NCBI GenBank assembly: GCA_021325515.1
Contig: JAJPHC010000054.1
Coordinates: 147,874-211,873, forward strand
Source: Acidobacteriota bacterium
GTDB lineage: Bacteria > Acidobacteriota > Thermoanaerobaculia > Gp7-AA8
Reading direction: 5' to 3'
DNA length: 64,000 nt
The translations under genes and the position numbers were made by a program. Numbering within the stretch: position 1 is the first letter of the stretch; each line of letters starts with the position of its first letter. Below are positions 13,098-56,561 of the stretch, piece by piece. Under the pieces are notes generated by a model. That model searched no databases, was not told where the DNA came from, and worked only from the letters and a program-made list of their open reading frames with translations.

Positions 13098-14936
13098 CTA
13101 CGCCACGACCGCTTCGCGGTACTGAATCTCGTACAGCTTGCGATAGAGGCCTTCGATCTCCATCAGCTCTTCGTGCGTTCCGCGCTCGCGGATCTCGCCG
13201 TGATGGAACACGAGGATCGAATCGGCAGAGCGGATCGTCGAGAGGCGGTGAGCGATCACGATCGACGTGCGGCCGGCGAGCAGCGTCTGGATCGCCTCCT
13301 GGATCAGCCGTTCCGTCTCCGTGTCGATGGACGACGTGGCTTCGTCGAGAATCAGCACGGGCGGATCGAAGGCGAGCGCGCGGGCAAACGAGAGCAGTTG
13401 TTTCTCCCCGACCGAAAAACCCGCACCGCGCTCGCGCACGGCCGAGGAGTAACCCTCCGGCAGCCGCGAGATGAAGCGATCGGCCTGCACGCGGCGCGCC
13501 GCTTCGCGGATGGTCTCTTCGCTGATGTCCGGATCGCCGAGGGAGATGTTCTGGCCGACGGAACCGGTGAAGAGGAAGAAGTCCTGCTGCACGATGGCGA
13601 AGAGCCGGCGCAGCGATGCGAGCTTGTACTTGCGGATGTCGAGGCCATTGATGAGGATCTCGCCCTTCTGCGGTTCGTAGAAACGCAGAAGCAGTGCGGT
13701 GATCGTCGTCTTTCCCGCGCCCGTGTGCCCGACGAGCGCGACGCGCTCTCCCCGCTTCACGCTGAACGAGACGTGCTTGAGGACCCACTCCGGCTCGTTG
13801 TACGCGAAACAGACATCGCGAAACTCGATCGAGTCGAAATGCTCGAGCTCCAGCGTCCCCTCATCCCGGATCTTCACCTCGGTGTCGATCAGTTTGAAGA
13901 TCCGCTCGCTCGCCGCCATCGCCGCCTGCAGGATGTTGTACTTCTCGGAGAGGTCGGAGATCGGCTCGTAGAAGCGCTGCGCATACTGGAAGAAGGCGAT
14001 CAGCGCGCCGACCGACAGCATCCCTCTCACCACTTGTCCGCCGCCGAACCAGAGGATCAGCGCGATGCCGGCCGACTGAATCAACTCGATCACCGGATAG
14101 AAGACTGCGTAATAGAAGATCGAATCGATGTTCGCGTCGCGATGGCGCGCGTTCAACTGCTCGAACTTCTCCGCCTCCTTCTCCTCGCGGTTGAAGAGCT
14201 GCACCGTGGCGACGCCGGAGATGTGCTCCTGCAGAAATGCGTTGATCGCCGCGATGCGCGCACGCACCTGGCGGTACGTCTTGCGGGCACCCTGCCGGAA
14301 CCAGATCGAGATCAGGATGATGAACGGCGTGATCGAGAAGAGGACCAGCGACAAGCGCCAGTTCATCCAGAAGAGGACGCCGACGATGCCGATCAGCACG
14401 AAGATGTCGCCGAAGATCGCGACGAAGCCTGCGGTGAACATCTCGTTGAGCGCATCGACGTCGGTCGTCACACGCGTCATCAGGCGGCCGACGGGATTGC
14501 GATCGAAGAACTGCACGTCGAGCCGCTGCAGGTGCTCGAAGATCTGCTTGCGAAGGTCGTACATGATGTACTGCCCCATCAGATTCATCAGCACCATCTG
14601 CGAGTAGAGCACCGCGAAATTGCCGCACAGCACGATCATGTAGATGAGCGCGGCGGCATTGATCCCCATCAGAGGATCGGCGTTCCATCCATGCGCGGTG
14701 AGAAACTCGCCGATGCGCGCCGAGAGCCCGACAGGCTGCGTCCCGAGAGGCTTCACGAAGAGATCGATCGCGACCGCAACGATGGCCGGCCCCGCGATCT
14801 CCAGGATCGAAGAGAAAATCACCAGGATGACGGAGACGATCGCCCGCGCGCGATACGGCCGGAGATAGCGCAGCAGACGCCGCGCAAGATGCGGGTCGAA
14901 GGCCCTGCTTCCTTCGTCTTCGTGTCGTTCGTCCAT
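13098..14936 (-). CDS. ABC transporter ATP-binding/permease fusion protein (type I exporter half-transporter)
   Basis: 6-TM N-terminal domain. Walker A GHTGAGKTT. Signature LSGGEKQ-like. Walker B ILDEATS. Confidence 0.9.
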   Translation of the reverse strand: MDERHEDEGSRAFDPHLARRLLRYLRPYRARAIVSVILVIFSSILEIAGPAIVAVAIDLFVKPLGTQPVGLSARIGEFLTAHGWNADPLMGINAAALIYMIVLCGNFAVLYSQMVLMNLMGQYIMYDLRKQIFEHLQRLDVQFFDRNPVGRLMTRVTTDVDALNEMFTAGFVAIFGDIFVLIGIVGVLFWMNWRLSLVLFSITPFIILISIWFRQGARKTYRQVRARIAAINAFLQEHISGVATVQLFNREEKEAEKFEQLNARHRDANIDSIFYYAVFYPVIELIQSAGIALILWFGGGQVVRGMLSVGALIAFFQYAQRFYEPISDLSEKYNILQAAMAASERIFKLIDTEVKIRDEGTLELEHFDSIEFRDVCFAYNEPEWVLKHVSFSVKRGERVALVGHTGAGKTTITALLLRFYEPQKGEILINGLDIRKYKLASLRRLFAIVQQDFFLFTGSVGQNISLGDPDISEETIREAARRVQADRFISRLPEGYSSAVRERGAGFSVGEKQLLSFARALAFDPPVLILDEATSSIDTETERLIQEAIQTLLAGRTSIVIAHRLSTIRSADSILVFHHGEIRERGTHEELMEIEGLYRKLYEIQYREAVVA

Positions 14937-14948
14937 GTTTAATGAAGC

Positions 14949-15047
14949 AGTGACGAGTGATGAGTGACGAGTGATGAGTGAGAAGTGCTCTTCAACTCTT
15001 CACTCGTCACTCGTCACTCTTCACTCTTCACTCGTCACTCGTCACTC
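14949..15047. repeat. heptamer-tandem inverted-repeat hairpin element, copy 1 (GTGACGA/GTGATGA x5 ... CTCGTCA/CTCTTCA x7)
   Basis: Read directly. Intergenic between the two co-directional ABC exporter genes. The arms are reverse complements at the heptamer level. Confidence 0.6.
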
Positions 15048-15049
15048 CC

Positions 15050-16795
15050 CTAAGCAATCTCCTCGATCTCGTCTTCCAGCGTCTGCCGGCGGTAGAGATC
15101 GGCGTAGTAACCGCCATGCGCGAGCAGCGACTCGTGCGTACCGCGCTCGACGATCCGGCCATCATCGAGCACGATGATGTGATCCGCATCCTTCACTGAC
15201 GAGACGCGATGCGAGACGACGAGCGCGGTTCTTCCCTTCCTCACCTCGCGCAGCGCGTTGAGGATCCGCTCTTCCGTGGCGGTGTCCACGGCGCTGAGCG
15301 AATCATCGAGAATGAGCACCAGCGGATTGCGGACGAGCGCACGCGCAATCGCGGTGCGCTGTTTCTGCCCGCCCGACAAGGTGATGCCTCGCTCGCCGAT
15401 CACGGTGCCGAGGCCCTGCGGAAATCCGGCAACGTCGGTGGAGAGTCCGGCCAGACGCGCCGCTTCGCCCACTTCCTCATCGGTCGCATCTCCACGCCCG
15501 AAGCGGATGTTCTCCGCAAGCGACTCCGAAAAGAGGAACGTCTCCTGCGGCACGATGCCGGTCAGTGAACGAAGCTGGCGCAACTGCATCGTCTCCACCG
15601 GCACACCGTCGAGAAAGATCGACGATGCGGGCGGCTCGAACGTGCGCGTGATCAGCGACAGCAGCGTCGACTTGCCGCTGCCGGTGCGGCCGACGATGCC
15701 GATCGTCTCTCCGGCACGAACCTGCATGTTGATGTTGCGCAGAACGGGCTGCGTTCCGGTCGGATAGGTGAACGTCAGATCGCGAATGTCGATGTCGCCG
15801 CGGATCTCTCCTTCGATGCGCGTGCCCGCATCCGGCGACACGCCGGACGAAATGGACCAGACGTCGTGCAGCCGCTGCATCGACGCCATTCCGCGCTGGA
15901 AGAGATTGATGACCCATCCGAGTGCGATCAGCGGCCAGATCATTCGCCCGAGATAGAACTGGAAGGCGACGAAGGAACCGATGGTCATCGAGTGCGCGAG
16001 GATGCGGCGCGACCCGAGGAAGAAGATGAAGACGAACATCAGACCGATGAGGGCGTGCAGTGCCGGATAGAACGTCGCGGTCAGCCGGATCAGCGAACGG
16101 TTGCGGTTCACGTACTCGCGATTCATCGCCTTGAACGCGCCGATCTCGTGCTGCTCCTGCGTGAAGGCGCGCACCACACGCACGCCGGAGAGGTTCTCCT
16201 GCACCCGCGCGGAGATATCGCCGAAGTAGTCCTGCACGGACTTGAAGCGGAGGTGAATCCGCTGGCCGAAGAACTTCACGAGGAAAACGATGACCGGCAC
16301 GGACGACAGCGCCGTGAGCGCCATCATTCGGTCGATGCGCAGCATCATGATGAACGCGCCGGCCACGACGATCAGCGAAGAAAACGAATGCATCACCGCC
16401 GGGCCGATCAGCATGCGCACCGAAGAGAGATCGTTGGTCGCACGCGACATCAGATCGCCGGTGCGCTGCTCCTGGTAATACGACACGGGCAGCTGCTGCA
16501 GGTGATCGTAGAAGTCGTTGCGCATCTCGTATTCGATGTGCCGCGACACTCCGATGATGATCCAGCGCTGGAGGTAGAGAAAGACGCCTTCGACGGCGGC
16601 GACGGCCACGAAGAGAAGTCCGTAACGGAAGAATGTCGCGCGCGTCGCGGCCTTCGACAGCTCATCCACGGCGTTGCCGACGATCGCCGGCTTCATCAGC
16701 GAGAACGCGGCGGAGCCCAGGACGCAGAGTCCACCGAGTAGAAGTGGCGTCCTGTGGCGAGCGAAGTAGTGCAGGAGGCGGCGAAGCGGGGTCAC
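15050..16795 (-). CDS. ABC transporter ATP-binding/permease fusion protein (partner half-transporter)
   Basis: 6-TM domain. Walker A GRTGSGKST. LSGGQKQR signature. Walker B ILDDSLS. Confidence 0.9.
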   Translation of the reverse strand: MTPLRRLLHYFARHRTPLLLGGLCVLGSAAFSLMKPAIVGNAVDELSKAATRATFFRYGLLFVAVAAVEGVFLYLQRWIIIGVSRHIEYEMRNDFYDHLQQLPVSYYQEQRTGDLMSRATNDLSSVRMLIGPAVMHSFSSLIVVAGAFIMMLRIDRMMALTALSSVPVIVFLVKFFGQRIHLRFKSVQDYFGDISARVQENLSGVRVVRAFTQEQHEIGAFKAMNREYVNRNRSLIRLTATFYPALHALIGLMFVFIFFLGSRRILAHSMTIGSFVAFQFYLGRMIWPLIALGWVINLFQRGMASMQRLHDVWSISSGVSPDAGTRIEGEIRGDIDIRDLTFTYPTGTQPVLRNINMQVRAGETIGIVGRTGSGKSTLLSLITRTFEPPASSIFLDGVPVETMQLRQLRSLTGIVPQETFLFSESLAENIRFGRGDATDEEVGEAARLAGLSTDVAGFPQGLGTVIGERGITLSGGQKQRTAIARALVRNPLVLILDDSLSAVDTATEERILNALREVRKGRTALVVSHRVSSVKDADHIIVLDDGRIVERGTHESLLAHGGYYADLYRRQTLEDEIEEIA

Positions 16796-37327: not shown

Positions 37328-38438
37328 CGACGATCTGCCGTTTCGAGAGCTCGTCCATGAACAACTGCGGCGGAATGCACCGCTCCTGCGGCAACGCACC
37401 CTTCGAAGTCGTCTGCCCGCGCGCCATCATCAGCGCGACGATCGACGCGGGGAACGCGGTCGTCCGCATCATCGCCGACAATCCGGTCTGCGGATCGAGA
37501 TGATCGATGATGTCGTAGCGGAGCTTCTTCCCGCCGCCTGCGACTTCCACGCGAACGAGCACGGCATCGGGACCATCGTGCGGAAGATTCTTGATCAGCA
37601 GCTCGCCCAGCACGCGGCGCGGCTTCACCTTCGCGCCGTCCACGTCGATCGGATTGCTGGAGCAGAGGCCGAGATCGATCATCGTCTTGAACTTCGAGCA
37701 GTGGCCCGGATAGCGGATCGTCTTGTAATCGAGCTCGCGCACTTTGCCGAGGTAGGTCTCCACGAGAGTGGAGGTTCCGCCTGAGGTCTGAAAGGCCTCC
37801 ATCCGTCCGAACGGCTCCGGAAACTCCAGCAACTCGATCTCCGTCATCGACTCGACCTCGACGACGCGGCCGTCGCGAATGACTCGCGCCGGCTCGATGT
37901 ACTCGTTGATGAGTCCCTCGACCGAGAACACGAGTTGATAGTCGAGCGGCGGCTCAGGGTTCTGCGGCAGGCCGCCGACACGGATGTGCACTTCCTGCGC
38001 ATTCTCGACGCGCTCGATTGCATGCGCGACGAGCACCGCCACCATTCCCGGAGCGAGTCCGCAATCGGGAATGATGTTCAGCCCCGCGGCCTTCGCCTCG
38101 GCGTCGAGCGCCAGCTCCTTGTCCACGACCGTGTTGTTGCCGCCGAGATCACAGAAGTGCGAGCCGGCTTCGATCGCCGCCTTGGCCAGCCGCTCGTTGA
38201 GCCAGTAGTTGACGCAACTGATCGTCGACGCATGGCCGCGCATCAGCTTCACCACCGCGGCCTGATCATCGCAATCGATCTGCGCGGCATCGACTTTTCT
38301 TCCGACACGCGAAGCGACGCGCTCCGCCGCATGAAGACTCATGTCGGCCACGGTGATTTTCTCGACGTCACTCTGCTGCGCGAGATCGTAAACAGCGCCG
38401 AGGCCCATGCGGCCGGCACCAAGGACAAGGATGTTCAT
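37308..38438 (-). CDS. saccharopine dehydrogenase family NAD(P)-dependent oxidoreductase
   Basis: N-terminal Rossmann motif ILVLGAGRMG. Overall similarity to the saccharopine/carboxynorspermidine dehydrogenase family. Confidence 0.75.
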   Translation of the reverse strand: MNILVLGAGRMGLGAVYDLAQQSDVEKITVADMSLHAAERVASRVGRKVDAAQIDCDDQAAVVKLMRGHASTISCVNYWLNERLAKAAIEAGSHFCDLGGNNTVVDKELALDAEAKAAGLNIIPDCGLAPGMVAVLVAHAIERVENAQEVHIRVGGLPQNPEPPLDYQLVFSVEGLINEYIEPARVIRDGRVVEVESMTEIELLEFPEPFGRMEAFQTSGGTSTLVETYLGKVRELDYKTIRYPGHCSKFKTMIDLGLCSSNPIDVDGAKVKPRRVLGELLIKNLPHDGPDAVLVRVEVAGGGKKLRYDIIDHLDPQTGLSAMMRTTAFPASIVALMMARGQTTSKGALPQERCIPPQLFMDELSKRQIVVSETWV

Positions 38439-38451
38439 GAAAGCTCCAGAT

Positions 38452-38538
38452 TAACGATGAACGATGAACGATGAACGATGAACATGGGACCGCGGAGCGG
38501 TTCACCGTTCATCGTTCATCGTTCATCGTTCATCGTTA
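38452..38538. repeat. heptamer-tandem inverted-repeat hairpin element, copy 2 (GATGAAC x4 - loop - GTTCATC x4, near perfect)
   Basis: Read directly: aacgatgaacgatgaacgatgaacgatgaac-atgggaccgcggagcggttcacc-gttcatcgttcatcgttcatcgttcatcgtt. Intergenic between two minus-strand genes. Confidence 0.7.
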
Positions 38539-38913
38539 CTTCAAGTATTGTTCGATCGAGCTGATGAACGTCTTCACGTCGATCGGCTTGGAGATGTATC
38601 CGTCGCAGCCGGCTTCGAGGAAGCGGTCTTTGTCGCCGCGCATCGCGTGCGCGGTCAGCGCGAGGATCGGAATGCGCGAGGTGCGGTCGTTCGATTTCAT
38701 GCGGCGAACGACGCTCAGCCCGTCCATCCCCGGCAGGTGGATGTCCATGAGGATCAGATCGAAGGATGCGAGATCGTCGTCGTTGCTCGTGATGGCCAGC
38801 GCCTCTTCGCCGCTCGTGGCTTTCACGATGTCGTATCCGCCCTCTTCGAGCAGGTACTCGACGAGCTGCATGTTCATGTCGTTGTCTTCGACGACCAGGA
38901 TTTTTGCGCTCAT
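38536..38913 (-). CDS. single-domain response regulator (CheY-like receiver)
   Basis: KILVVEDNDMN...DLILMDIHLPGMDG...LTAHAM..D...GCDGYISKP. Confidence 0.85.
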   Translation of the reverse strand: MSAKILVVEDNDMNMQLVEYLLEEGGYDIVKATSGEEALAITSNDDDLASFDLILMDIHLPGMDGLSVVRRMKSNDRTSRIPILALTAHAMRGDKDRFLEAGCDGYISKPIDVKTFISSIEQYLK

Positions 38914-40015: not shown

Positions 40016-40066
40016 GATTTTTGCGTGACGAGTTGCCCGCCGAAACTGCAGTCTGCACAAGCACCT

Positions 40067-41629
40067 ATGGCTAAAGTCACCATCGACGGAATCGAAGTCG
40101 AAGTCCAGGACGGCATCAATTGCATCGAGGCCGCGAAGGCCGCTGATGTCCACGTCCCGCACTTCTGCTACCACCCCTCTCTGACAGTCGTCGGACAGTG
40201 CCGCATGTGCCTCGTCGAAGTCGAGGGCATGCCGAAACTGCAGGCCGGCTGCGCCACCCCTGTGAAGGACGGGATGAAGATCCACGTCTGGAACGAGAAG
40301 GTCGACAAAGCCCGCAAGGGCCAGATGGAGTTCCTCCTCATCAACCACCCGCTGGACTGTCCGATCTGCGACAAGGCCGGCGAGTGCCCGCTGCAGGACT
40401 ACTCCTTCAACTACGGCTCTGTGGAGTCGCGCTACGGCGAAGTGAAGCGCACGTATCCCGGCATGGATCGCACGCCGATCGGCCCGCATGTCGTGCAGAA
40501 CATGAATCGCTGCATCCACTGCACGCGATGCATCCGCTTCACGCAGGAGATCACCGGCACGAGCGAGCTCGCTTTCTTCAAGCGCGGCGCCTCGACGGAA
40601 GTCGGCGTCTTCGCCGGCGTCCCGCTCGACAACTGGATGTCCGCCTGCGTCACCGACATCTGCCCCACCGGCGCACTGACGACGCGCGAATTCCGCTTCG
40701 AATCGCGCGTCTGGAATCTCGATTCCGCGGAATCGGTCTGCAATGGCTGCGATGTCGGCTGCAACATCTTCATCGGCAGCCGCAGCGGCCAGGTCTACCG
40801 CTATCGCCCGCGCGTCAATCCCGAAGTCAACGATCACTGGCTGTGTGATTACGGCCGCTTCTCGCACGAGAAGTACGACACCGATCGCGTCGTCGTTCCG
40901 AAGGTCCGGCAGGACGACTATCTCGGAATCTCGACCTGGGGCGAGGCGCTCGAGGCCATCACCTCCGCCGTGCGCGGCGCGAAGTCGATCGGTGTCATCG
41001 CTTCCGCACAGATGACGAACGAGGAAGCGTGGCTCGCCAAGCAGCTCTTCGTCGATCAGATGAAGGCGAAGGCCACCGTCACCGTCGATCCGATCGGCCC
41101 GATCAAGATGAAGTCGCGCACGGAGTGGCTCGCCGGCGAACAGGCCGGCCCGAACTTCCGCGGCGTCTCCGCAATCCTGGGTGCAGGTCAGGCGACCTCG
41201 CCTGACAAACAGGCGGAGGCGCCTGTCGTACACGACGTGCTCTTCGTTCTCGACGCGCAGTTCAGCGAGCGCGCAAAAGATCCTTCCTACATCGCGCAGC
41301 TTCGCAAGTCGAAGTTCCTCGTCGTCATCTCCTGGGATGCCAATCATCCGCTTGCAGATGCCGCCGACGTCCTCCTCCCCGGCACGATTCATCCGGAGAA
41401 GGAAGGGACATACACGAATCTGCAGAACCGCGTGCAGCGAATCCATCAGGCATTCCCGCCGAAGGGACAGGCGGTCAGCGAGCTCGAGCTCTTCCGCCGG
41501 ATCGGCGCCGCTCTCTATCCGGATGCGGCGGAGTTCCGCAGCGCCGATGCGTATGACGTCTTCGCTTCGCTGCGGCAGTCGATGCCTGCGATGCAGATCT
41601 CCGAAGAAATGTCTGCCGAGGCTGTGTAA
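40067..41629 (+). CDS. nuoG: NADH-quinone oxidoreductase subunit G (short form, about 520 aa)
   Basis: N-terminal 2Fe-2S ferredoxin fold (CYHP..C..C). 4Fe-4S motifs (CPICDKAGECPLQ; CIHCTRCIRF). The start is taken at MAKVTIDGIEV. Confidence 0.85.
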   Translation: MAKVTIDGIEVEVQDGINCIEAAKAADVHVPHFCYHPSLTVVGQCRMCLVEVEGMPKLQAGCATPVKDGMKIHVWNEKVDKARKGQMEFLLINHPLDCPICDKAGECPLQDYSFNYGSVESRYGEVKRTYPGMDRTPIGPHVVQNMNRCIHCTRCIRFTQEITGTSELAFFKRGASTEVGVFAGVPLDNWMSACVTDICPTGALTTREFRFESRVWNLDSAESVCNGCDVGCNIFIGSRSGQVYRYRPRVNPEVNDHWLCDYGRFSHEKYDTDRVVVPKVRQDDYLGISTWGEALEAITSAVRGAKSIGVIASAQMTNEEAWLAKQLFVDQMKAKATVTVDPIGPIKMKSRTEWLAGEQAGPNFRGVSAILGAGQATSPDKQAEAPVVHDVLFVLDAQFSERAKDPSYIAQLRKSKFLVVISWDANHPLADAADVLLPGTIHPEKEGTYTNLQNRVQRIHQAFPPKGQAVSELELFRRIGAALYPDAAEFRSADAYDVFASLRQSMPAMQISEEMSAEAV

Positions 41630-41632
41630 GAG

Positions 41633-42937
41633 ATGGCATTCGACGCAACAGACATCGCACTCTCGCTCCTCAAGATCGTCGTCGTTCTTGCCGCACTGCT
41701 GAATGTCACGCCGATCATGGTCTGGATCGAGCGCCGCGGCAGCGCGCTGATTCAGGATCGTCCGGGACCGAATCGCGTCGGCCCCTTCGGGCTCATTCAG
41801 TCGTTCGCGGACGCGCTGAAGTTCATCCTGAAGGAAGACCTGATCCCGGAGCAGTCGCACAAGTGGCTCTACACCATCGCGCCGATGTTCGGCCTGCTGC
41901 CCGCGCTGACCACGATCTCGGTCATCCCCTGGGGCGAGCCGTTCCGGCTGCCGGATGACATCGCGTACGGCGGCAAGCTGTCGCTCGCGCTGATGATCGC
42001 CGCCGGTGTGATGCTGATGGCCGGTCTGCTCATCGCAGGCTTCGCCGTTCATCCGAAGGAAGGCGTCGGGCGGATGCCGCTCAACCTCACGATTCGGTGG
42101 ATGGTCGCGATCGGTCTCATCCTCGGCGGCTTCGCAGTCGGCGGACTCGTGATCGCGCTTCGCCAGTTCGGCCCGTTCCACCTGCCGGGCGCCGGCCGCA
42201 TCTTCGAACCGATCGTCGCCGATCTCAACATCGGAATCCTGCTGATCTTCGCCCTCGCATCGCTGGGCGTCTACGGCATCGTCACCGCGGGCTGGGCCTC
42301 ATCGAACAAGTACTCGCTCTTCGGCGGTATCCGCGCTTCGGCACAGATGATCTCGTACGAGCTCGCGCTCACACTCGCAGCGGTGAGCACACTGCTCGCC
42401 GCGGGATCGCTGCGGCTGACCGACGTGGTCTGGCAGCAGACCGGTTACTTCTACATCTTCAACACGATCAAGATCCCGGCGTGGAACGTCTTCTCGCCGG
42501 CGATGTGGCTCAGCTTCATCATCTTCACCGTCTCCGCATTCGCAGAGACCAATCGTCTGCCGTTCGACTTCGCCGAAGCGGAAGCGGAGCTCGTCGCCGG
42601 ATACCACACCGAGTATTCGTCGATGAAGTTCGCGCTCTTCTTCATGGCCGAGTACATGTCGATGGCCGCGATCTCCGCCCTCATCGCGACGCTCTATCTC
42701 GGCGGATGGGACATCCCCTACTTCGCGGAAACCGCCACCTGGTGGTCGTCGGTGCTGTCGATGGGCTGCTTCGTGACGAAGGTCGTGGCGCTGCTGCTCG
42801 TCTTCGTCTGGGTGCGCTGGACGATCCCCCGGCTCAAGTACGACATCCTGATGCGCCTTGGCTGGAAGGTGTTCCTGCCGCTGGCGATCGTGAACATCGT
42901 GATCGTTGCATTCTTCGTTGCCAAACACTGGATATGA
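41633..42937 (+). CDS. nuoH: NADH-quinone oxidoreductase subunit H
   Basis: Conserved ...VWIERRGSALIQDRPGPNRVGPFGLIQSFADALK motif region. Multi-TM. Confidence 0.95.
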   Translation: MAFDATDIALSLLKIVVVLAALLNVTPIMVWIERRGSALIQDRPGPNRVGPFGLIQSFADALKFILKEDLIPEQSHKWLYTIAPMFGLLPALTTISVIPWGEPFRLPDDIAYGGKLSLALMIAAGVMLMAGLLIAGFAVHPKEGVGRMPLNLTIRWMVAIGLILGGFAVGGLVIALRQFGPFHLPGAGRIFEPIVADLNIGILLIFALASLGVYGIVTAGWASSNKYSLFGGIRASAQMISYELALTLAAVSTLLAAGSLRLTDVVWQQTGYFYIFNTIKIPAWNVFSPAMWLSFIIFTVSAFAETNRLPFDFAEAEAELVAGYHTEYSSMKFALFFMAEYMSMAAISALIATLYLGGWDIPYFAETATWWSSVLSMGCFVTKVVALLLVFVWVRWTIPRLKYDILMRLGWKVFLPLAIVNIVIVAFFVAKHWI

Positions 42938-43034
42938 GAGATGGTCACGCGGTCGCGCGGTTTCGCGGGCTCGCGGTGGTTCGGTCCACCTGCGCGCCCG
43001 CGGACCCGCGTGACCGCGTAACCCCGTAACCAAC

Positions 43035-43535
43035 ATGTTCGAATTCGCGATCTTCTTCTTCTTCGCCGCCATCGCCGTGATTTTCGCGCTGGTGGTCGTA
43101 CTGCACCGGAATCCGGTGGTAGGAGCGCTGTCCCTCGTGGCGTCGTTCTTCTCGCTGGCGGTGATGTACGTACTGCTCGAGGCGCCGTTTCTCGCAGCGC
43201 TGCAGGTGATCGTTTACGCAGGCGCGATCATGGTCCTCTTTCTCTTCGTGATCATGCTGCTGAATCTGCAGCACCAGGAGGAAGCGCCGACGCGGCCCGT
43301 GCAGCAATTCCTCGGCTACTCGTCGAGCGCCGCCTTCGTTCTCGGGCTCGTCTACTACATCGTCAAGTACGCGGCGTTCACGTCGCTTCCTTCCGGTCCG
43401 TTCAAGACGGACGCGATGCTCATCGGGGCCGACCTCTTCCAGGCGTACGTCTTCCCCTTCGAGATGGTCTCGATCCTTCTGCTGGCGGCGATCGTCGGCG
43501 CGCTGCTGCTCAGCGCACGGAGTGTGGCGCGATGA
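43035..43535 (+). CDS. nuoJ: NADH-quinone oxidoreductase subunit J
   Basis: Typical NuoJ N-terminus ([26 protein letters not shown]) and size. Confidence 0.85.
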
Positions 43536-43834
43536 TTCCGACTCATTACTTTCTGATTCTGAGCGCGGTTCTCTTCTCCATCGGCGTCTGCGGCGTGCTC
43601 ACGCGGAAGAACGGCATCACGATCTTCATGTCGATCGAGCTGATGGTGAACGCCGTCAATCTCACGTTCCTCGCCTACGCGAGGCAGTTTCATCAGCTCC
43701 ACGGACTGATCTTCGTATTCTTCGTGATGGCGATCGCGGCAGCAGAAGCAGCGGTCGGGCTCGCCATCTTCATCTCTCTCTTCCACCACAAGGAAACGAT
43801 CGATGTGGACGAAGCGAATCTGATGCACTGGTGA
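43532..43834 (+). CDS. nuoK: NADH-quinone oxidoreductase subunit K
   Basis: 100 aa, 3 TM, conserved [16 protein letters not shown]. Overlaps the nuoJ stop (ATGA). Confidence 0.9.
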
Positions 43835-43908
43835 GTGGAACGGGCTGAGGGCTCAACACTCAGCACCTGGAACACAGGTCGCATCTTGTAATCGGTGGAG
43901 ACTGCAAG

Positions 43909-44316
43909 ATGCGAAAGACAGAAAAGCTCATTGACTGGCAGGAAAACGAGAGGAAGGACCGCAATCGCAACGGTCTCGATGATCGAATCGAGCCGCCGAT
44001 CCCCGATGTATCGCAGGGCTCGAAACGATTGGCGGAACGGCTTCGCGACGATGGACTGGCCGACCCGGCCGTAACGGCGGGCGACCTCGACGCACGGTGG
44101 GAAGCAGCGCAATTCACCGGCGACGAATCAGCCATCAGCTCGATGCCGACTCCGGAGCCGAATGTGGTCGACGAAATCGGAGCATCGATCGGAATCAACT
44201 ACGCGGCAGATGAAGAGCTGAAGGCCGGCGAGAAGGAACGCGAACGCGACCGGCATCGTTGGGAGCTCGATCCGGCTTCCTCCGAGGATTATCAGGATCG
44301 CAGTAGAGAACGATAG
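43909..44316 (+). CDS. small highly charged hypothetical protein (135 aa) inserted between nuoK and nuoL; atypical composition
   Basis: ORF with E/D/R-rich, low-complexity product and visibly lower third-position GC than flanking nuo genes. May be foreign or non-coding. Confidence 0.3.
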   Translation: MRKTEKLIDWQENERKDRNRNGLDDRIEPPIPDVSQGSKRLAERLRDDGLADPAVTAGDLDARWEAAQFTGDESAISSMPTPEPNVVDEIGASIGINYAADEELKAGEKERERDRHRWELDPASSEDYQDRSRER

Positions 44317-44367
44317 AGAGCGGCTCGGGGAAGACTCCTCGCGCCGTATCAAAAGACGCGAGGAGAT

Positions 44368-44445
44368 CAACGATGGACGATGAACGATGAATGATGAACG
44401 GGGCAGTTCCCTCGTTCGTCGTTCATCGTTCGTCGTTCATCGTCC
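44368..44445. repeat. heptamer-tandem inverted-repeat hairpin element, copy 3 (GATGGAC GATGAAC GATGAAT GATGAAC - loop - inverted)
   Basis: Read directly, immediately upstream of the nuoL start codon (44452). Confidence 0.65.
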
Positions 44446-44451
44446 CCTGCA

Positions 44452-46353
44452 ATGCTGACAAAACTCTGGCTCATCCCCCTGCTACCGTTCATCGGTTTCG
44501 TGCTGAACGGGCTGTTCGGCAAGCGGCTCGGAAAGGCGTTCGTCACCGGTGTTGCGCTGGTGTCGACGTTCGGAGCTGCGGTCGTCGGAACGATGGCTGC
44601 GTTCCAGTATCACGCTCAGTACCCCGAGGGTGAGCGGTACGTCCAGACGGTATTCAACTGGTTCACGTCGGGGAGCATTCATGCCGACGTCGCCTTCCAG
44701 CTCGACCCGCTGTCGATCGTGATGCTGATGGTCGTGACGTGGATCGGCGCGCTCATCCATCTCTACTCCGTCGGCTACATGGCGCACGAAGATGGGTACT
44801 GGCGCTACTTCGCGTACCTCAACCTCTTTCTCTCCGAGATGCTCGTGCTCATCCTCGGCGCGAACTACCTCGTGATGTTCGTCGGCTGGGAAGGCGTCGG
44901 ACTCTGCTCGTATCTCCTCATCGGCTTCTACTACAAGACCGACTACGCGCCGGCCGCCGGCAAGAAGGCGTTCGTCGTCAACCGCATCGGCGACTTCGGT
45001 TTCCTCATCGCAGTCTTCCTGATGTTCGCGTATCTCGGGACGGCGGATTTCGGCCTCGTCTCGCATCGCGCGGCCGCGGGCGTCGACGCGTGGCTCCTCA
45101 CCGCAATCTGTCTGCTGCTCTTCCTCGGCGCGTGCGGTAAGTCGGCGCAGATTCCGTTGTACGTGTGGCTGCCGGACGCGATGGCCGGCCCGACGCCGGT
45201 CTCCGCACTCATCCACGCGGCGACGATGGTCACCGCGGGCGTCTACATGATCGCGCGCAGCAACGCGCTCTACCGGCTTGCACCCGACGCGATGATGGTC
45301 GTCGCAATCGTCGGCTCGGTCACTGCGCTGTTCGCAGCAACCATCGGCATCCGGCAGTGGGACATCAAGAAGGTCCTCGCCTACTCCACCGTCTCGCAGC
45401 TCGGCTTCATGTTCATCGGCGTCGGCGTCGGCGCATTCACCGCCGGCGTGTTCCATCTCGTCACGCACGCCTTCTTCAAGGCCTGTCTCTTCCTCGGCTC
45501 GGGCTCGGTGATTCACGCGATGTCGGGCGAGCAGGACATCCGCAAGATGGGCGGGCTGAGGTCGAAGATCCCCATCACCTACTGGACGTTCCTGATCGCG
45601 ACGATCGCGATCGCAGGCTTCCCGCCGTTCGCAGGCTTCTTCTCGAAAGACGAGATCCTCGGTTCCGCGCTCTCGTCGCCGTATCTCCCGGCCGGCGTCC
45701 GCTACCTCGTGTGGGGCCTCGGCAGCGTCGCCGCGCTCTGCACCGCGTACTACATGTTCCGCCTCGTGTTCCTGACGTTCTTCGGCGACTTCCGTGGAAC
45801 ACACGAACAGGAGCACCACCTCCACGAATCGCCGGCAACGATGACGATTCCGCTGATCGTTCTCGCAACTCTGTCGACGATCGGCGGGTTCGCGCTCGCG
45901 TGGCATCACACGCTGGCGAAGTGGCTCGAGCCGATTTATCCGAAGATCGAAGGCCGCGAGAGCGAGTTCGCGATCGCCAACGAAGTCCCGCTCATGATCG
46001 TCGCCACGATCATCGCGGCGATTGGTACCTGGCTCGCCTACGTCCGCTTCTACAAGCGCGGGCTCGCAGCCGACGAATCGTTCGCGCAGAGCTCTCCCGC
46101 CATCGCACGCGGCATGGAGAACAAGTGGTACGTCGACGAGCTCTATGAAGCGATCATCGTCCGTCCGCTCGAAAAGATCTCTCTCTTCTTCTGGAAGTTC
46201 ATCGACGCGATCATCGACGGCCTCGCGGCCATGCTCGGCTACATCGTGCAGGGCTTCGGGGATCTGATGCGCTTCTTTCAAACCGGCAACGTTCGCAACT
46301 ACGCGCTGATGCTGTTCCTCGGCGTGATCGTCTTCATGTGGGTGATCTCGTGA
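44452..46353 (+). CDS. nuoL: NADH-quinone oxidoreductase subunit L
   Basis: 633 aa. Antiporter-like multi-TM with conserved WLPDAMAGPTPVSALIHAATMVTAGVY. Confidence 0.95.
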   Translation: MLTKLWLIPLLPFIGFVLNGLFGKRLGKAFVTGVALVSTFGAAVVGTMAAFQYHAQYPEGERYVQTVFNWFTSGSIHADVAFQLDPLSIVMLMVVTWIGALIHLYSVGYMAHEDGYWRYFAYLNLFLSEMLVLILGANYLVMFVGWEGVGLCSYLLIGFYYKTDYAPAAGKKAFVVNRIGDFGFLIAVFLMFAYLGTADFGLVSHRAAAGVDAWLLTAICLLLFLGACGKSAQIPLYVWLPDAMAGPTPVSALIHAATMVTAGVYMIARSNALYRLAPDAMMVVAIVGSVTALFAATIGIRQWDIKKVLAYSTVSQLGFMFIGVGVGAFTAGVFHLVTHAFFKACLFLGSGSVIHAMSGEQDIRKMGGLRSKIPITYWTFLIATIAIAGFPPFAGFFSKDEILGSALSSPYLPAGVRYLVWGLGSVAALCTAYYMFRLVFLTFFGDFRGTHEQEHHLHESPATMTIPLIVLATLSTIGGFALAWHHTLAKWLEPIYPKIEGRESEFAIANEVPLMIVATIIAAIGTWLAYVRFYKRGLAADESFAQSSPAIARGMENKWYVDELYEAIIVRPLEKISLFFWKFIDAIIDGLAAMLGYIVQGFGDLMRFFQTGNVRNYALMLFLGVIVFMWVIS

Positions 46354-55789: not shown

Positions 55790-56461
55790 ATGTGCATGGC
55801 ACCGATTCCGGAGGGGGAGTTTCTGCTGCCTCTCTTCCCCCTGCCCAACATGGTGTTCTTTCCGAACACGCGAGTGCCGCTTCATGTCTTCGAGCAGCGC
55901 TACCGGCAGATGATCACCGACGCGCTCGATACCGATCAGCGAGTCGGGATCGTGCTGCTGAGACCCGGATGGGAAGCTGACTACTTCGGCGCGCCGCCGA
56001 TCCATCTCTGCGGAACCGTCGGGACGATCGAGCAGGCGGTGCCGCTCGAGGATGGGCGCTTCAACATCCTCCTGCATGGTGATGTGCGATTCCGCGTCGT
56101 CGATGAGGTATCGAGCATTCCTTATCGGACGGCGCGCGTGATCGCACAACCCGAATCGCATCGAACCGTGGATCAGGCGTACGCGCAACGGGAGTGGCTC
56201 GCGGATCTCTCGCGGCAGTACCTGCGATATCTGCCCGAACAGTCGGCAGTGCCGGAGATCGACACCGTCGGTCTCGACGCGCTGACGAATGCGCTCATCA
56301 TGTCGCTCAATCTGGAGGTCGAGGAGAAGCAGCGCCTCCTCGAGATCGACGACATGATCAGCCGCGCCGAAAGCGTCGGCAACGAGCTCACGTCACGCAT
56401 CGAGAGCCTTCGCTTCCTGGCCCCCTACCGCCGCGAAGGCGGCGACCCCGCCCAAAATTAA
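55790..56461 (+). CDS. Lon protease N-terminal (LON substrate-binding) domain protein
   Basis: LPLFPLPNMVFFP..PLHVFE.RY..M motif of the Lon N-domain. 223 aa with no ATPase or protease domain. Confidence 0.75.
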   Translation: MCMAPIPEGEFLLPLFPLPNMVFFPNTRVPLHVFEQRYRQMITDALDTDQRVGIVLLRPGWEADYFGAPPIHLCGTVGTIEQAVPLEDGRFNILLHGDVRFRVVDEVSSIPYRTARVIAQPESHRTVDQAYAQREWLADLSRQYLRYLPEQSAVPEIDTVGLDALTNALIMSLNLEVEEKQRLLEIDDMISRAESVGNELTSRIESLRFLAPYRREGGDPAQN

Positions 56462-56561
56462 GTTGGTTTTCGGGGGTCACACCTGGAAAATCAACTTAAC
56501 TCCGCGCCACACCTCGCCGTTAAGTTGATTTTCCAGGTGTGACCCCCGAAAACCAACTTAA
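56458..56561. repeat. 104-bp perfect palindrome (42-bp arms, 20-bp spacer) between convergent genes; both stop codons lie in the arm ends
   Basis: Left arm ttaagttggttttcgggggtcacacctggaaaatcaacttaa (56458-56499) is the exact reverse complement of the right arm at 56520-56561. Each arm is itself an imperfect hairpin. Confidence 0.85.

Follow-up and report, generated by a model that had tools for sequence, protein, structure and literature searches.

Three intergenic hairpins (copies 1, 2, and 3) in a 64,000-nt stretch of DNA from an Acidobacteriota bacterium (class Thermoanaerobaculia; assembly GCA_021325515.1, contig JAJPHC010000054.1, positions 147,874 to 211,873; hereafter the window) belong, together with two octamer analogues, to one large population of intergenic palindromic short-tandem-repeat elements of Acidobacteriota. 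These elements are built as 5'-(unit)n - loop - (reverse-complement unit)n-3'; the unit measures 7 nt or, less often, 8 nt. The feature is real and widespread, and of a kind that is already known but unexplained. Our favored interpretation, to which we assign a probability of roughly 0.55, is that the hairpins are DNA-level palindromic heptamer-repeat elements similar to repetitive extragenic palindromes (REPs), that they are selfish or neutral and shaped by slippage and copying between loci, and that they are not dedicated regulatory RNAs.

A first-pass annotation of the window, made from the sequence alone, had described three loci with tandem heptamers, a short loop, and the same heptamers inverted. 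All three were confirmed, as were their gene contexts: copy 1 between two ABC exporter genes (ABC1 and ABC2), copy 2 between the genes of a response regulator (RR) and a saccharopine dehydrogenase (SacDH), and copy 3 between a DUF6335 gene and nuoL (Table 1). The number of three was too low, as the window holds at least five such structures and the two octamer versions had been overlooked.

Verification and anatomy of the hairpins

Tandem Repeats Finder detected period-7 arrays in both arms of copies 1–3, with 4.6–7.6 units per arm, and a repeat finder returned the arm pairs as inverted repeats of 34–42 nt with 85–90% complementarity. The RNA folding proposed in the annotation gave −59 to −67 kcal/mol (z = −6 to −12.7 against dinucleotide shuffles), and none of 200 shuffles folded as stably as the real hairpins; for the DNA folds, z ranged from −6.8 to −12. 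With a custom detector for a tandem array, a loop, and a complementary tandem array, four hairpins with a period of at least 7 were found in the window and none in 60 dinucleotide-shuffled windows. Period-5 matches of this detector were noise (about one per shuffle).

The window sequence is contained, without differences, in a 480-kb ENA metagenome contig. Elements of this kind are also carried by the genomes of two isolates, Larkinella humicola and Bacteroides hominis, and by numerous independent metagenome-assembled genomes (MAGs); the hairpins are therefore not assembly artefacts. An independent Logan assembly includes the 3' arm of copy 2; its contig (SRR5581483, locus L002; loci are cited by L-numbers where they have to be told apart) breaks in the hairpin loop at window position 38509, as commonly happens to palindromes when short reads are assembled. 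Among named sequences, the homologues closest to the NuoJ and ABC proteins of the window come from Thermoanaerobaculia MAGs.

In copy 1, the 5' arm consists of about 4.7 AGTGAYG units at 14949–14981, extending to 14987, and is followed by a loop (approximately 14988–14994) and a 3' arm of about 7.6 ACTCKTC units at 14995–15047, so that the two arms differ in their number of units (~5 vs. ~7.6). Copy 2 is composed of five GATGAAC units (38449–38483) and 5.4 GTTCATC units (38500–38537) with a GGACCGC/GCGGTTC mini-stem as apex. Copy 3 has arms of five GATGRAY units at 44365–44400 and 4.6 at 44412–44443, in the order GATGGAC/GATGAAC/GATGAAT units, a GGGG..CCCT apex, and GTTCGTC/GTTCATC units.

All three are placed tightly between coding features. 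On the sense strand, the TAG stop codon of ABC1 lies 2 nt ahead of copy 1, and the ATG of ABC2 follows 12 nt past it without an obvious Shine-Dalgarno (SD) sequence. The outermost unit of copy 2 on the minus strand is the TAA stop codon of the RR gene, and the SD of the SacDH gene (GGAG) is placed between copy 2 and the ATG. Copy 3 occupies the spacer between the SD (GAGGAGA) and the ATG of nuoL.

A large population with many units

A pattern scan for (GATGAAC)2-N0-30-(GTTCATC)2 over 185,579 species genomes revealed at least 120 loci with a GATGAAC hairpin. The annotation had proposed a dispersed family with a shared architecture and a genome-wide search for it; the family is far larger than the window suggested, as related DNA contains a hairpin of heptamers or octamers about every 10 kb. 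The possibility, raised there, that only three copies exist without conservation in relatives does not hold, as the family is conserved in relatives. Among the matches listed, most GATGAAC loci were from Thermoanaerobaculia, Pyrinomonadaceae, other Acidobacteriota, and Vicinamibacterales, and few from Planctomycetota, Saprospiraceae, Chloroflexales, Alcaligenaceae, and the two isolates. Single MAGs, of which parts were compared, gave at least 10 GATGAAC loci.

The same ~0.9 Mb of loci contained 91 further hairpins of period 7 or 8, built from 61 other units. Overall, the period was 7 in 191 hairpins, 8 in 10, and 9–10 in 6, with periods 5–6 at noise level. Because many units occur at a nearly constant period, the defining feature is the heptad, sometimes octad, palindromic architecture and not one particular sequence. 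The detected hairpins have 2.7–11.6 units per arm (median ~4.6), and the arms differ by at least one unit in 73 of 201. Recurrent unit families among the 91 further hairpins are AAATCGT, AGGCAGT, and AGTGCCG, given ~2,340 possible heptamer necklaces. Mixed arrays in L008 connect the copy 1 unit GATGAGT with GATGAGC and GATGAAC, which places copies 1–3 together.

The arms have a polarity: on both strands, the 5' arm contains more G than C (66 vs. 5 and 74 vs. 26 hairpins, p < 1e-5), and this G-rich-first order was also found in divergent gaps (8/8). At the RR–SacDH junction of L171, two tandem hairpins are of opposite polarity: they begin with C-rich CCTCCNRG units, and their 3' arms consist of GGAGG repeats, which are SD-like and lie just ahead of the start codon.

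No GATGAAC hairpin was present in 2.9 million viral contigs, and GAGTGAC-type hairpins were found in only two (IMG/VR; L216, 3386–3435, and L217, 4652–4702; both ~65% GC). Given this rarity, phages are not an obvious vector.

Some Pyrinomonadaceae loci deserve separate description. In an 8-kb MAG locus (L011), seven heptamer hairpins with four different units occupy consecutive junctions within a single gene cluster; each directly adjoins a stop codon, and the next start codon comes after it. CAGTAGG-armed elements with a conserved CAGATGG variant unit and partly conserved cores of 60–90 nt (L028, 100–229; L043, 247–371, 1034–1183, and 5322–5448; L063, 2827–2949) are the observed subfamily that most resembles MITEs (miniature transposable elements with inverted repeats). 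Furthermore, hairpins with differing arm units share an apical module composed of an A-tract, a short GC stem, and a T-tract (TGAAAGAC..GTCTTTCA) in either orientation (L009, L027, L028, L032, L048, L055, L063, L075, L078, L079, L108, L111, and L116). From its sequence, this module looks like a small bidirectional intrinsic terminator inside a long stem.

Empty, filled, and refilled junctions in relatives

Syntenic loci were collected via NuoJ homologues (6) and a metagenome scan (80; 73–90% NuoJ identity), and the junctions were placed by tblastn. At each of the junctions RR–SacDH, nuoH–nuoJ, nuoK–DUF6335, and DUF6335–nuoL, 40–50% of about 60 relatives have tandem hairpins. Orthologous junctions that are not filled are clean empties of 0–14 nt, the filled ones hold many different units, and some genomes are empty at all four junctions.

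Among 18 distinct sequences of the RR–SacDH junction, the tandem hairpins are built from nine or more different 7- or 8-nt units, and the empties are clean, with 10–14 nt. One sequence contains a single-unit hairpin, GATAGCAG..CTGCTATC, the unit of which forms a four-unit array in another relative (L140 and L159, respectively; both GATAGCA). The nuoH–nuoJ junction, with ~60 distinct sequences, carries tandem hairpins in approximately half of them and is empty in one third, where stop and start codons overlap or are 0–6 nt apart. The octamer type of the window at this junction, GGTCNCGC, recurs in relatives that are only 77–80% identical.

At the DUF6335–nuoL junction, a small hairpin in which the SD is paired (CTCCTCGC/GCGAGGAG) is conserved in every relative, and the tandem hairpin, where present, lies inside the spacer between the nuoL SD and the ATG. 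Units of the tandem hairpin make up an NNTGARN series, with GATGAAC in six relatives as well as the window and, further, GATGAAG, GATGAGY, GCTGAGT, ACTGAGG, and CCTGAGT. Several of these hairpins hold other palindromic elements nested in their loops.

Non-tandem palindromic elements of 100–300 nt (e.g., GTCATCCTGAGTCGCCGGAGCC...GGCTCAGGATGAC) were also observed, either nested in heptamer loops or occupying the same junctions, both at DUF6335–nuoL (L144, L180, L184, L202, L204, and L206) and at nuoH–nuoJ (L134, L169, L194, and L208). The junctions and hairpin loops are hot spots for several element types.

The ABC1–ABC2 junction of copy 1 was compared across six relatives. An orthologous hairpin of GAGTGAC units is present in a 93%-identical relative (L209, GCA_016853205.1); GAGTGCT units with the same 3' flank occur in an 88% relative (L213), and CGGTTGT units in an 83% relative (L214). 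In L210–212 the junction is empty, the spacer is absent, and the genes overlap as TAATG. An apparent duplicate of the ABC1 gene end was seen 3' of the L209 and L213 hairpins; this is a single case.

Slippage within arms and sharing between loci

Between the close relatives L135 and L138, each arm has gained or lost whole units independently of the other. A higher-order period of 14 nt is present in the 3' arm of copy 3, which is a perfect 14-mer repeat, and in the 5' arm of copy 1; the 3' arm of copy 1 follows a different higher-order pattern from its 5' arm. Arm-independent unit changes together with arm-specific periods are a signature of replication slippage.

Other observations concern different loci. 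The variant order (GATGAAC)(GCGGAAC)(GATGAAC)2 ... (GTTCATC)2(GTTCCGC)(GTTCATC) recurs in at least seven loci of two classes. Two copies located 1.7 kb apart in L096 have the same arms and a reverse-complemented loop, and the loops of L048 and L116 are 100% identical once flipped. Of 75 pairs of junctions within a genome, 8 had a unit in common, compared to 2% in permutations (p < 0.0005); in the genome of L213 and L123, for example, AGTGCTG/AGTTCTG hairpins occupy at least four junctions.

No target-site duplication was found, neither as flanking direct repeats (mean 2.6 vs. 2.5 in the shuffled-pair null) nor in the comparison of filled with empty sites. Similarly, no nucleotides are conserved at the stem foot, and the tags GTAG and CGTC each occurred in 8 of 199 hairpins compared to 1–11 in control positions. 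The annotation had considered a MITE-like mobile element. What stands of this proposal is that whole elements occur in either orientation at different junctions and that units are shared; the missing target-site duplication speaks against a MITE in the strict sense.

Two ideas on the origin of the arrays were rejected. Seeding of an array by the stop codon, suggested by the RR–SacDH junction, holds only partly elsewhere (14/43). Selection for stop codons in all frames was considered as well, with the result that a stop triplet is enriched in the 5' arm (42/91 vs. 21/91) rather than always present; this idea cannot explain the polarity, which also exists in divergent gaps.

DNA level or RNA level

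The main rival explanation holds that selection maintains the hairpins as RNA elements for operon punctuation, through protection of the upstream cistron from 3' exonucleases, as RNase III sites, or by translational coupling or re-initiation across the closed stem. We regard this as a minority possibility, though the position of the hairpins invites it. In co-directional gaps, the median distance from the stop codon of the upstream gene to the start of the hairpin is 3 nt, and a further few to ~25 nt separate the hairpin from the next ribosome-binding site or ATG; in the window, the distances from the 3' foot to the ATG are 12, ~13, and ~7 nt for copies 1, 2, and 3. With this tight placement, the elements fill junctions that are otherwise 0–15 nt long. 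Stems of at least 30 bp, perfect or nearly so, lie inside operons, and in the empty orthologous junctions the codons overlap or adjoin (TGATG/TAATG), so the genes are coupled. The residual spacer between SD and ATG around copy 3 is conserved: left and right parts at DUF6335–nuoL add up to 11–13 nt, compared to 12–13 nt at four empty sites (L133, L151, L158, and L163). Junctions also remain filled, with compensatory changes in both arms, over 73–100% protein identity.

Copy 3 itself suggested selection on the sense-strand RNA, as all its arm differences are G·U pairs on the plus (sense) strand (−62.1 vs. −49.5 kcal/mol). This pattern is not general. Among 133 hairpins, the sense strand folded better in 57 and the antisense strand in 64; among 104 junction hairpins of known orientation, the corresponding numbers were 34 and 61, with 254 G·U pairs on the sense and 317 on the antisense strand.

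Gene calls for 120 genome loci were made with a self-trained dicodon model and interval scheduling. The gene orientations around 173 hairpins (133/20/20) did not differ from those expected from adjacent gene pairs of the same loci (126/22/24, p = 0.50), and hairpins in divergent, promoter-side gaps were at the baseline rate. An enrichment between convergent genes, obtained with a first, greedy gene caller that picked antisense open reading frames (ORFs) in GC-rich DNA, was gone with the better caller. Close relatives manage with all four junctions empty, unit number and sequence vary freely, and Rfam returned no match in the whole window at gathering thresholds. A terminator scan called none of the three window hairpins; no T-run follows them (tails GCTTCATTAAAC, AATCTGGAGC, and CCCCTGCAATG).

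The absence of strand bias, the baseline contexts, and the missing U-tract together argue against terminators and against a strand-specific RNA structure, and strand symmetry and context neutrality likewise weaken selection for an RNA stem. The regulatory or stabilizing RNA structure offered in the annotation is thus not borne out by these data.

Other explanations

According to a second, improbable explanation, the hairpins are purely local simple sequence repeats (SSRs): a 7–8 nt duplication beside the stop codon, followed by an inverted duplication and then by slippage only, with no movement between loci. Of the long SSRs in bacteria, heptamers form the most over-represented class, and the proposed cause is polymerase slippage (Mrazek 2007, cited in PMC4679880 and PMC4692102). 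Whole-unit differences between close relatives and the GATAGCA unit, present once per arm in L140 and four times in L159, fit this explanation. In 14 of 43 cases compared to 16% expected (p = 0.004), the first unit and the stop codon upstream of it share the same register, and AGT-initial units at the junction ahead of ABC1 resemble the empty spacer. Purely local birth is contradicted by the identical heptamers, variant order, and loops that recur at unrelated junctions and across genomes, by the significant sharing of units within genomes, and by the recurrent families and the low number of unit types in the 91 further hairpins relative to the possible necklaces.

Comparably improbable are cooperative protein-binding arrays at the DNA level, with ribbon-helix-helix proteins (omega repressor), gyrase, IHF, or another nucleoid protein, as at REPs and bacterial interspersed mosaic elements (BIMEs), as candidates. 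A strict 7-bp periodicity, in which three units make two helical turns, arms in both orientations, strand symmetry, and a distribution independent of the direction of transcription would suit such arrays. The omega repressor, a ribbon-helix-helix protein, reads 7-bp heptads, and the 3' arm unit of copy 1, CRTCACT, contains ATCAC, which we take to be the core of the omega heptad. Over 60 distinct unit sequences were present side by side in related genomes, with several of them in one genome, and a sequence-specific binder cannot read them all. Octamer versions at the same sites are a further difficulty, and no candidate protein was identified.

Classical MITEs, i.e., non-autonomous derivatives of insertion sequences with a DDE transposase, for which the heptamer arrays would be the terminal inverted repeats, are very improbable. 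The size of 60–200 bp, the terminal inverted repeats, the many dispersed copies, the presence/absence polymorphism, and the partly conserved cores of the CAGTAGG-armed elements are compatible with MITEs. Against this, target-site duplications are not above the null, conserved terminal nucleotides are absent at the stem foot, most copies hold just a short variable loop and no further internal sequence, and no parent insertion sequence turned up, although no search aimed at one was made.

Intrinsic (Rho-independent) terminators or attenuators are extremely improbable: the hairpins are stable GC-containing stem-loops directly past stop codons and the Pyrinomonadaceae apical module is terminator-like, but the scan of the window hairpins was negative, the hairpins separate genes whose subunits must be expressed together (nuoH/J, nuoK/L, and both ABC exporter genes), and they are neither enriched between convergent nor depleted between divergent genes.

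Proposed mechanism

For REP-like elements, we propose the following course. Each arm expands, contracts, and homogenizes its own variants by replication slippage, as the observed unit differences and arm-specific periods show, and the complementarity of the arms might be maintained by template switching within the hairpin or by selection on the stem. Whole elements would be copied or converted between junctions of one genome without target-site duplication; the pattern of shared units is observed, and the copying would be the process behind it. New elements may enter occupied junctions or the loops of old hairpins, which would create layered hairpins and genome-specific "dialects" of units. 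In short operon junctions they could persist because the stem closes in the transcript and stop codon, SD, and start codon regain their original spacing; the conserved residual spacer is consistent with this, and expression of the flanking genes would survive by way of the closed stem.

In an mRNA, the elements are bound to form stems of 30 bp, which probably affect its decay or processing; this would be a by-product rather than a demonstrated function. It is a possibility that cells exploit the elements as operon punctuation, with ribosomes re-initiating across the closed stem. A speculative proposal, which we put forward tentatively, is that heptad palindromes are written and rewritten by hairpin-specific copying, for example by an enzyme acting on single-strand DNA or by a template-switching replication pathway. 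If so, this process targets stop-proximal junctions and loops, leaves no duplication, proceeds with a G-rich-first polarity and a step of 7–8 nt, and generates the dialects of genomes. The elements would then constitute a new class of bacterial mobile or self-propagating DNA.

Several points weigh against REP-like elements. The relatives are not phylogenetically independent and the counts therefore overstate the number of events. Orthologous hairpins stay complementary, with compensatory unit changes in both arms, where the flanking proteins are 77–90% identical; structural selection explains such lasting complementarity at least as simply as templated correction, and selection for an RNA stem accounts better for how long the hairpins persist and for the compensatory changes in their arms. 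In-situ birth may explain part of the apparent copying, in view of the in-register stop codons and the spacer-like AGT-initial units described above. No copying enzyme came to light and none is hinted at in the window, although no transposase search was made. The strong polarity and the preference for periods 7 and 8 are left unexplained by a REP-like model. Finally, the gene caller was crude; strands were checked against annotated loci and start positions are unreliable.

Hairpins and genes of the window

The coordinates of the hairpins and their neighboring genes are collected in Table 1.

Table 1. Hairpin elements of the window with adjacent genes and related structures.
Feature	Position	Strand	Remarks
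Octamer analogue	1285–1410	none	GGSWCGCG units ... CCGCGMRC units; 48–60 nt loop; between convergent gene ends
ABC exporter gene (ABC2)	13098–14936	−	Downstream of copy 1
Copy 1 hairpin	14949–15047	none	Tandem-repeat, inverted-repeat, RNA and DNA fold evidence
ABC exporter gene (ABC1)	15050–16795	−	Upstream of copy 1; ABC_membrane and ABC_tran
Saccharopine dehydrogenase gene (SacDH)	37308–38438	−	Downstream of copy 2
Copy 2 hairpin	38449–38538	none	Tandem-repeat, inverted-repeat, fold evidence
Response-regulator gene (RR)	38536–38913	−	Upstream of copy 2
Octamer analogue	42943–43031	none	GGTCNCGC units and complement; between nuoH and nuoJ
DUF6335 gene	43909–44316	+	Upstream of copy 3
Small hairpin	44335–44365	+	CTCCTCGCG / CGCGAGGAG; pairs the nuoL SD; directly 5' of copy 3
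Copy 3 hairpin	44365–44445	none	Tandem-repeat, inverted-repeat, fold evidence
nuoL	44452–46353	+	Downstream of copy 3

The small SD-pairing hairpin 5' of nuoL is kept in about 60 relatives, with or without copy 3, and may be a translational control element for nuoL. The nuo cluster (40025–46353) has the order nuoG-nuoH-nuoJ-nuoK-DUF6335-nuoL-nuoM-nuoN, without nuoI between nuoH and nuoJ; the DUF6335 gene is located between nuoK and nuoL in every syntenic relative. From its first start codon, nuoH (41633–42937) encodes 434 amino acids compared to 366 called in relatives, and its true start is probably near 41837. The products of the two ABC genes that flank copy 1 probably form a heterodimer.

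A different structure is present at 56458–56561. Its two arms of 43 nt (TTAAGTTGGTTTTCGGGGGTCACACCTGGAAAATCAACTTAAC and the complement) form a perfect inverted repeat around a loop of 18 nt; tandem units are lacking, and the structure folds at −83 kcal/mol (z = −17). It occupies a short gap after an ORF on the plus strand (55790–56461), and putative minus-strand ORFs begin at about 56520–56558. No copy of it was found among 214 loci compared. It may be a different, recently inserted palindromic element.

Implications

The excess of heptamer SSRs in bacteria has been without an accepted explanation for nearly twenty years, and the inverted-pair form has been noted briefly, in Xanthomonas only. 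The lineage described here offers a natural experiment, with dozens of related genomes in which the same junctions are empty, filled, refilled, or nested. An origin by slippage or by copying, the reason for 7 nt, and the reason for the G-rich arm being first are testable in it. As the elements are sited between obligately co-expressed genes, such as those of complex I subunits and the ABC exporter pair, and even inside an SD–ATG spacer, they also test how much structure translation initiation and coupling tolerate. In practice, Acidobacteriota MAGs suffer from them through broken short-read assemblies, spurious ORFs, and misled terminator predictors, and many of these MAGs are probably fragmented by the palindromes.

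Comparison with known systems

A literature search found no description of such elements in Acidobacteriota. CRISPR arrays, with repeats of 23–50 nt and unique spacers of similar length, differ from the contiguous units of 7–8 nt found here. Intrinsic terminators are characterized by a U-run after the stem and a location at the end of a transcription unit, and the hairpins have neither.

In genes 38 and 25 of phage T4, split Shine-Dalgarno hairpins are known, the folding of which brings SD and start codon to a normal distance. Copy 3, a stable hairpin between SD and start, is positioned in the same way and might work like them. The T4 hairpins are single, short, and specific, whereas the SD–ATG spacer is one of many insertion contexts here and any effect on translation would be by analogy.

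MITEs share with the elements the small size (< ~500 bp), the lack of coding sequence, terminal inverted repeats, dispersal, and presence/absence polymorphism; unlike MITEs, the elements have no fixed-length target-site duplication and no conserved termini. The TAACTGA heptamer repeats of Beggiatoaceae, cyanobacteria, and Bacteroidetes (MacGregor 2015, PMC4679880) are likewise intergenic, close to start codons, and patchily distributed across phyla including Bacteroidetes. They contain TGA, as do units found here, and tandem heptamers with TGA provide stop codons in all three frames. They are direct repeats only (one inverted among 170 sets) of a single unit and form no hairpin, in contrast to the present elements.

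The closest precedents are the inverted GGGAATC heptamer pairs of Xanthomonas and the cyanobacterial STRR (short tandemly repeated repetitive) sequences. The STRR heptamers were reportedly described by Mazel in 1990. Rehm et al. (2015, PMC4692102) reported (GGGAATC)n heptamer repeats in Xanthomonas and GGGGAYT repeats in Nostoc. In Xanthomonas, 70–75 close array pairs per genome lie on opposite strands in a "convergent" arrangement with the G-rich array first; 83% are conserved in position between two species with variation in length, and they are transcribed with unknown function (PMC4692102). Inverted heptamer arrays as such are therefore not novel. Intergenic tandem heptamers, inverted arrays, the G-rich-first order, and conserved positions with length variation were all found here as well. 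The Xanthomonas units contain G-tracts and are capable of forming G-quadruplexes, whereas GATGAAC and AGTGAYG have no GGG run; the present population moreover comprises dozens of unit types and octamer versions in an Acidobacteriota host. Reuse of junctions by other units, nested hairpins, sharing of units within a genome, and insertion into an SD–ATG spacer have not been reported for Xanthomonas.

REPs, together with BIMEs and REPINs, are mobilized by REP-associated tyrosine (RAYT, Y1) transposases (PMC3116915, PMC3733652). Like the present elements, they are short extragenic imperfect palindromes with tens to hundreds of copies, often located between co-transcribed genes just past stop codons and lacking target-site duplications. 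They also form lineage-specific sequence families, and their loops are targeted by other elements. The arms described here differ in that they are tandem heptamers or octamers of variable unit number, with many unit families per genome, and in that the unpaired GTAG or CGTC foot tag is absent (8/199 each). The annotation had called the hairpins unlike REP and BIME elements, which is correct for the anatomy with its heptad arms; in behavior, REP and REPIN elements are the closest analogue.

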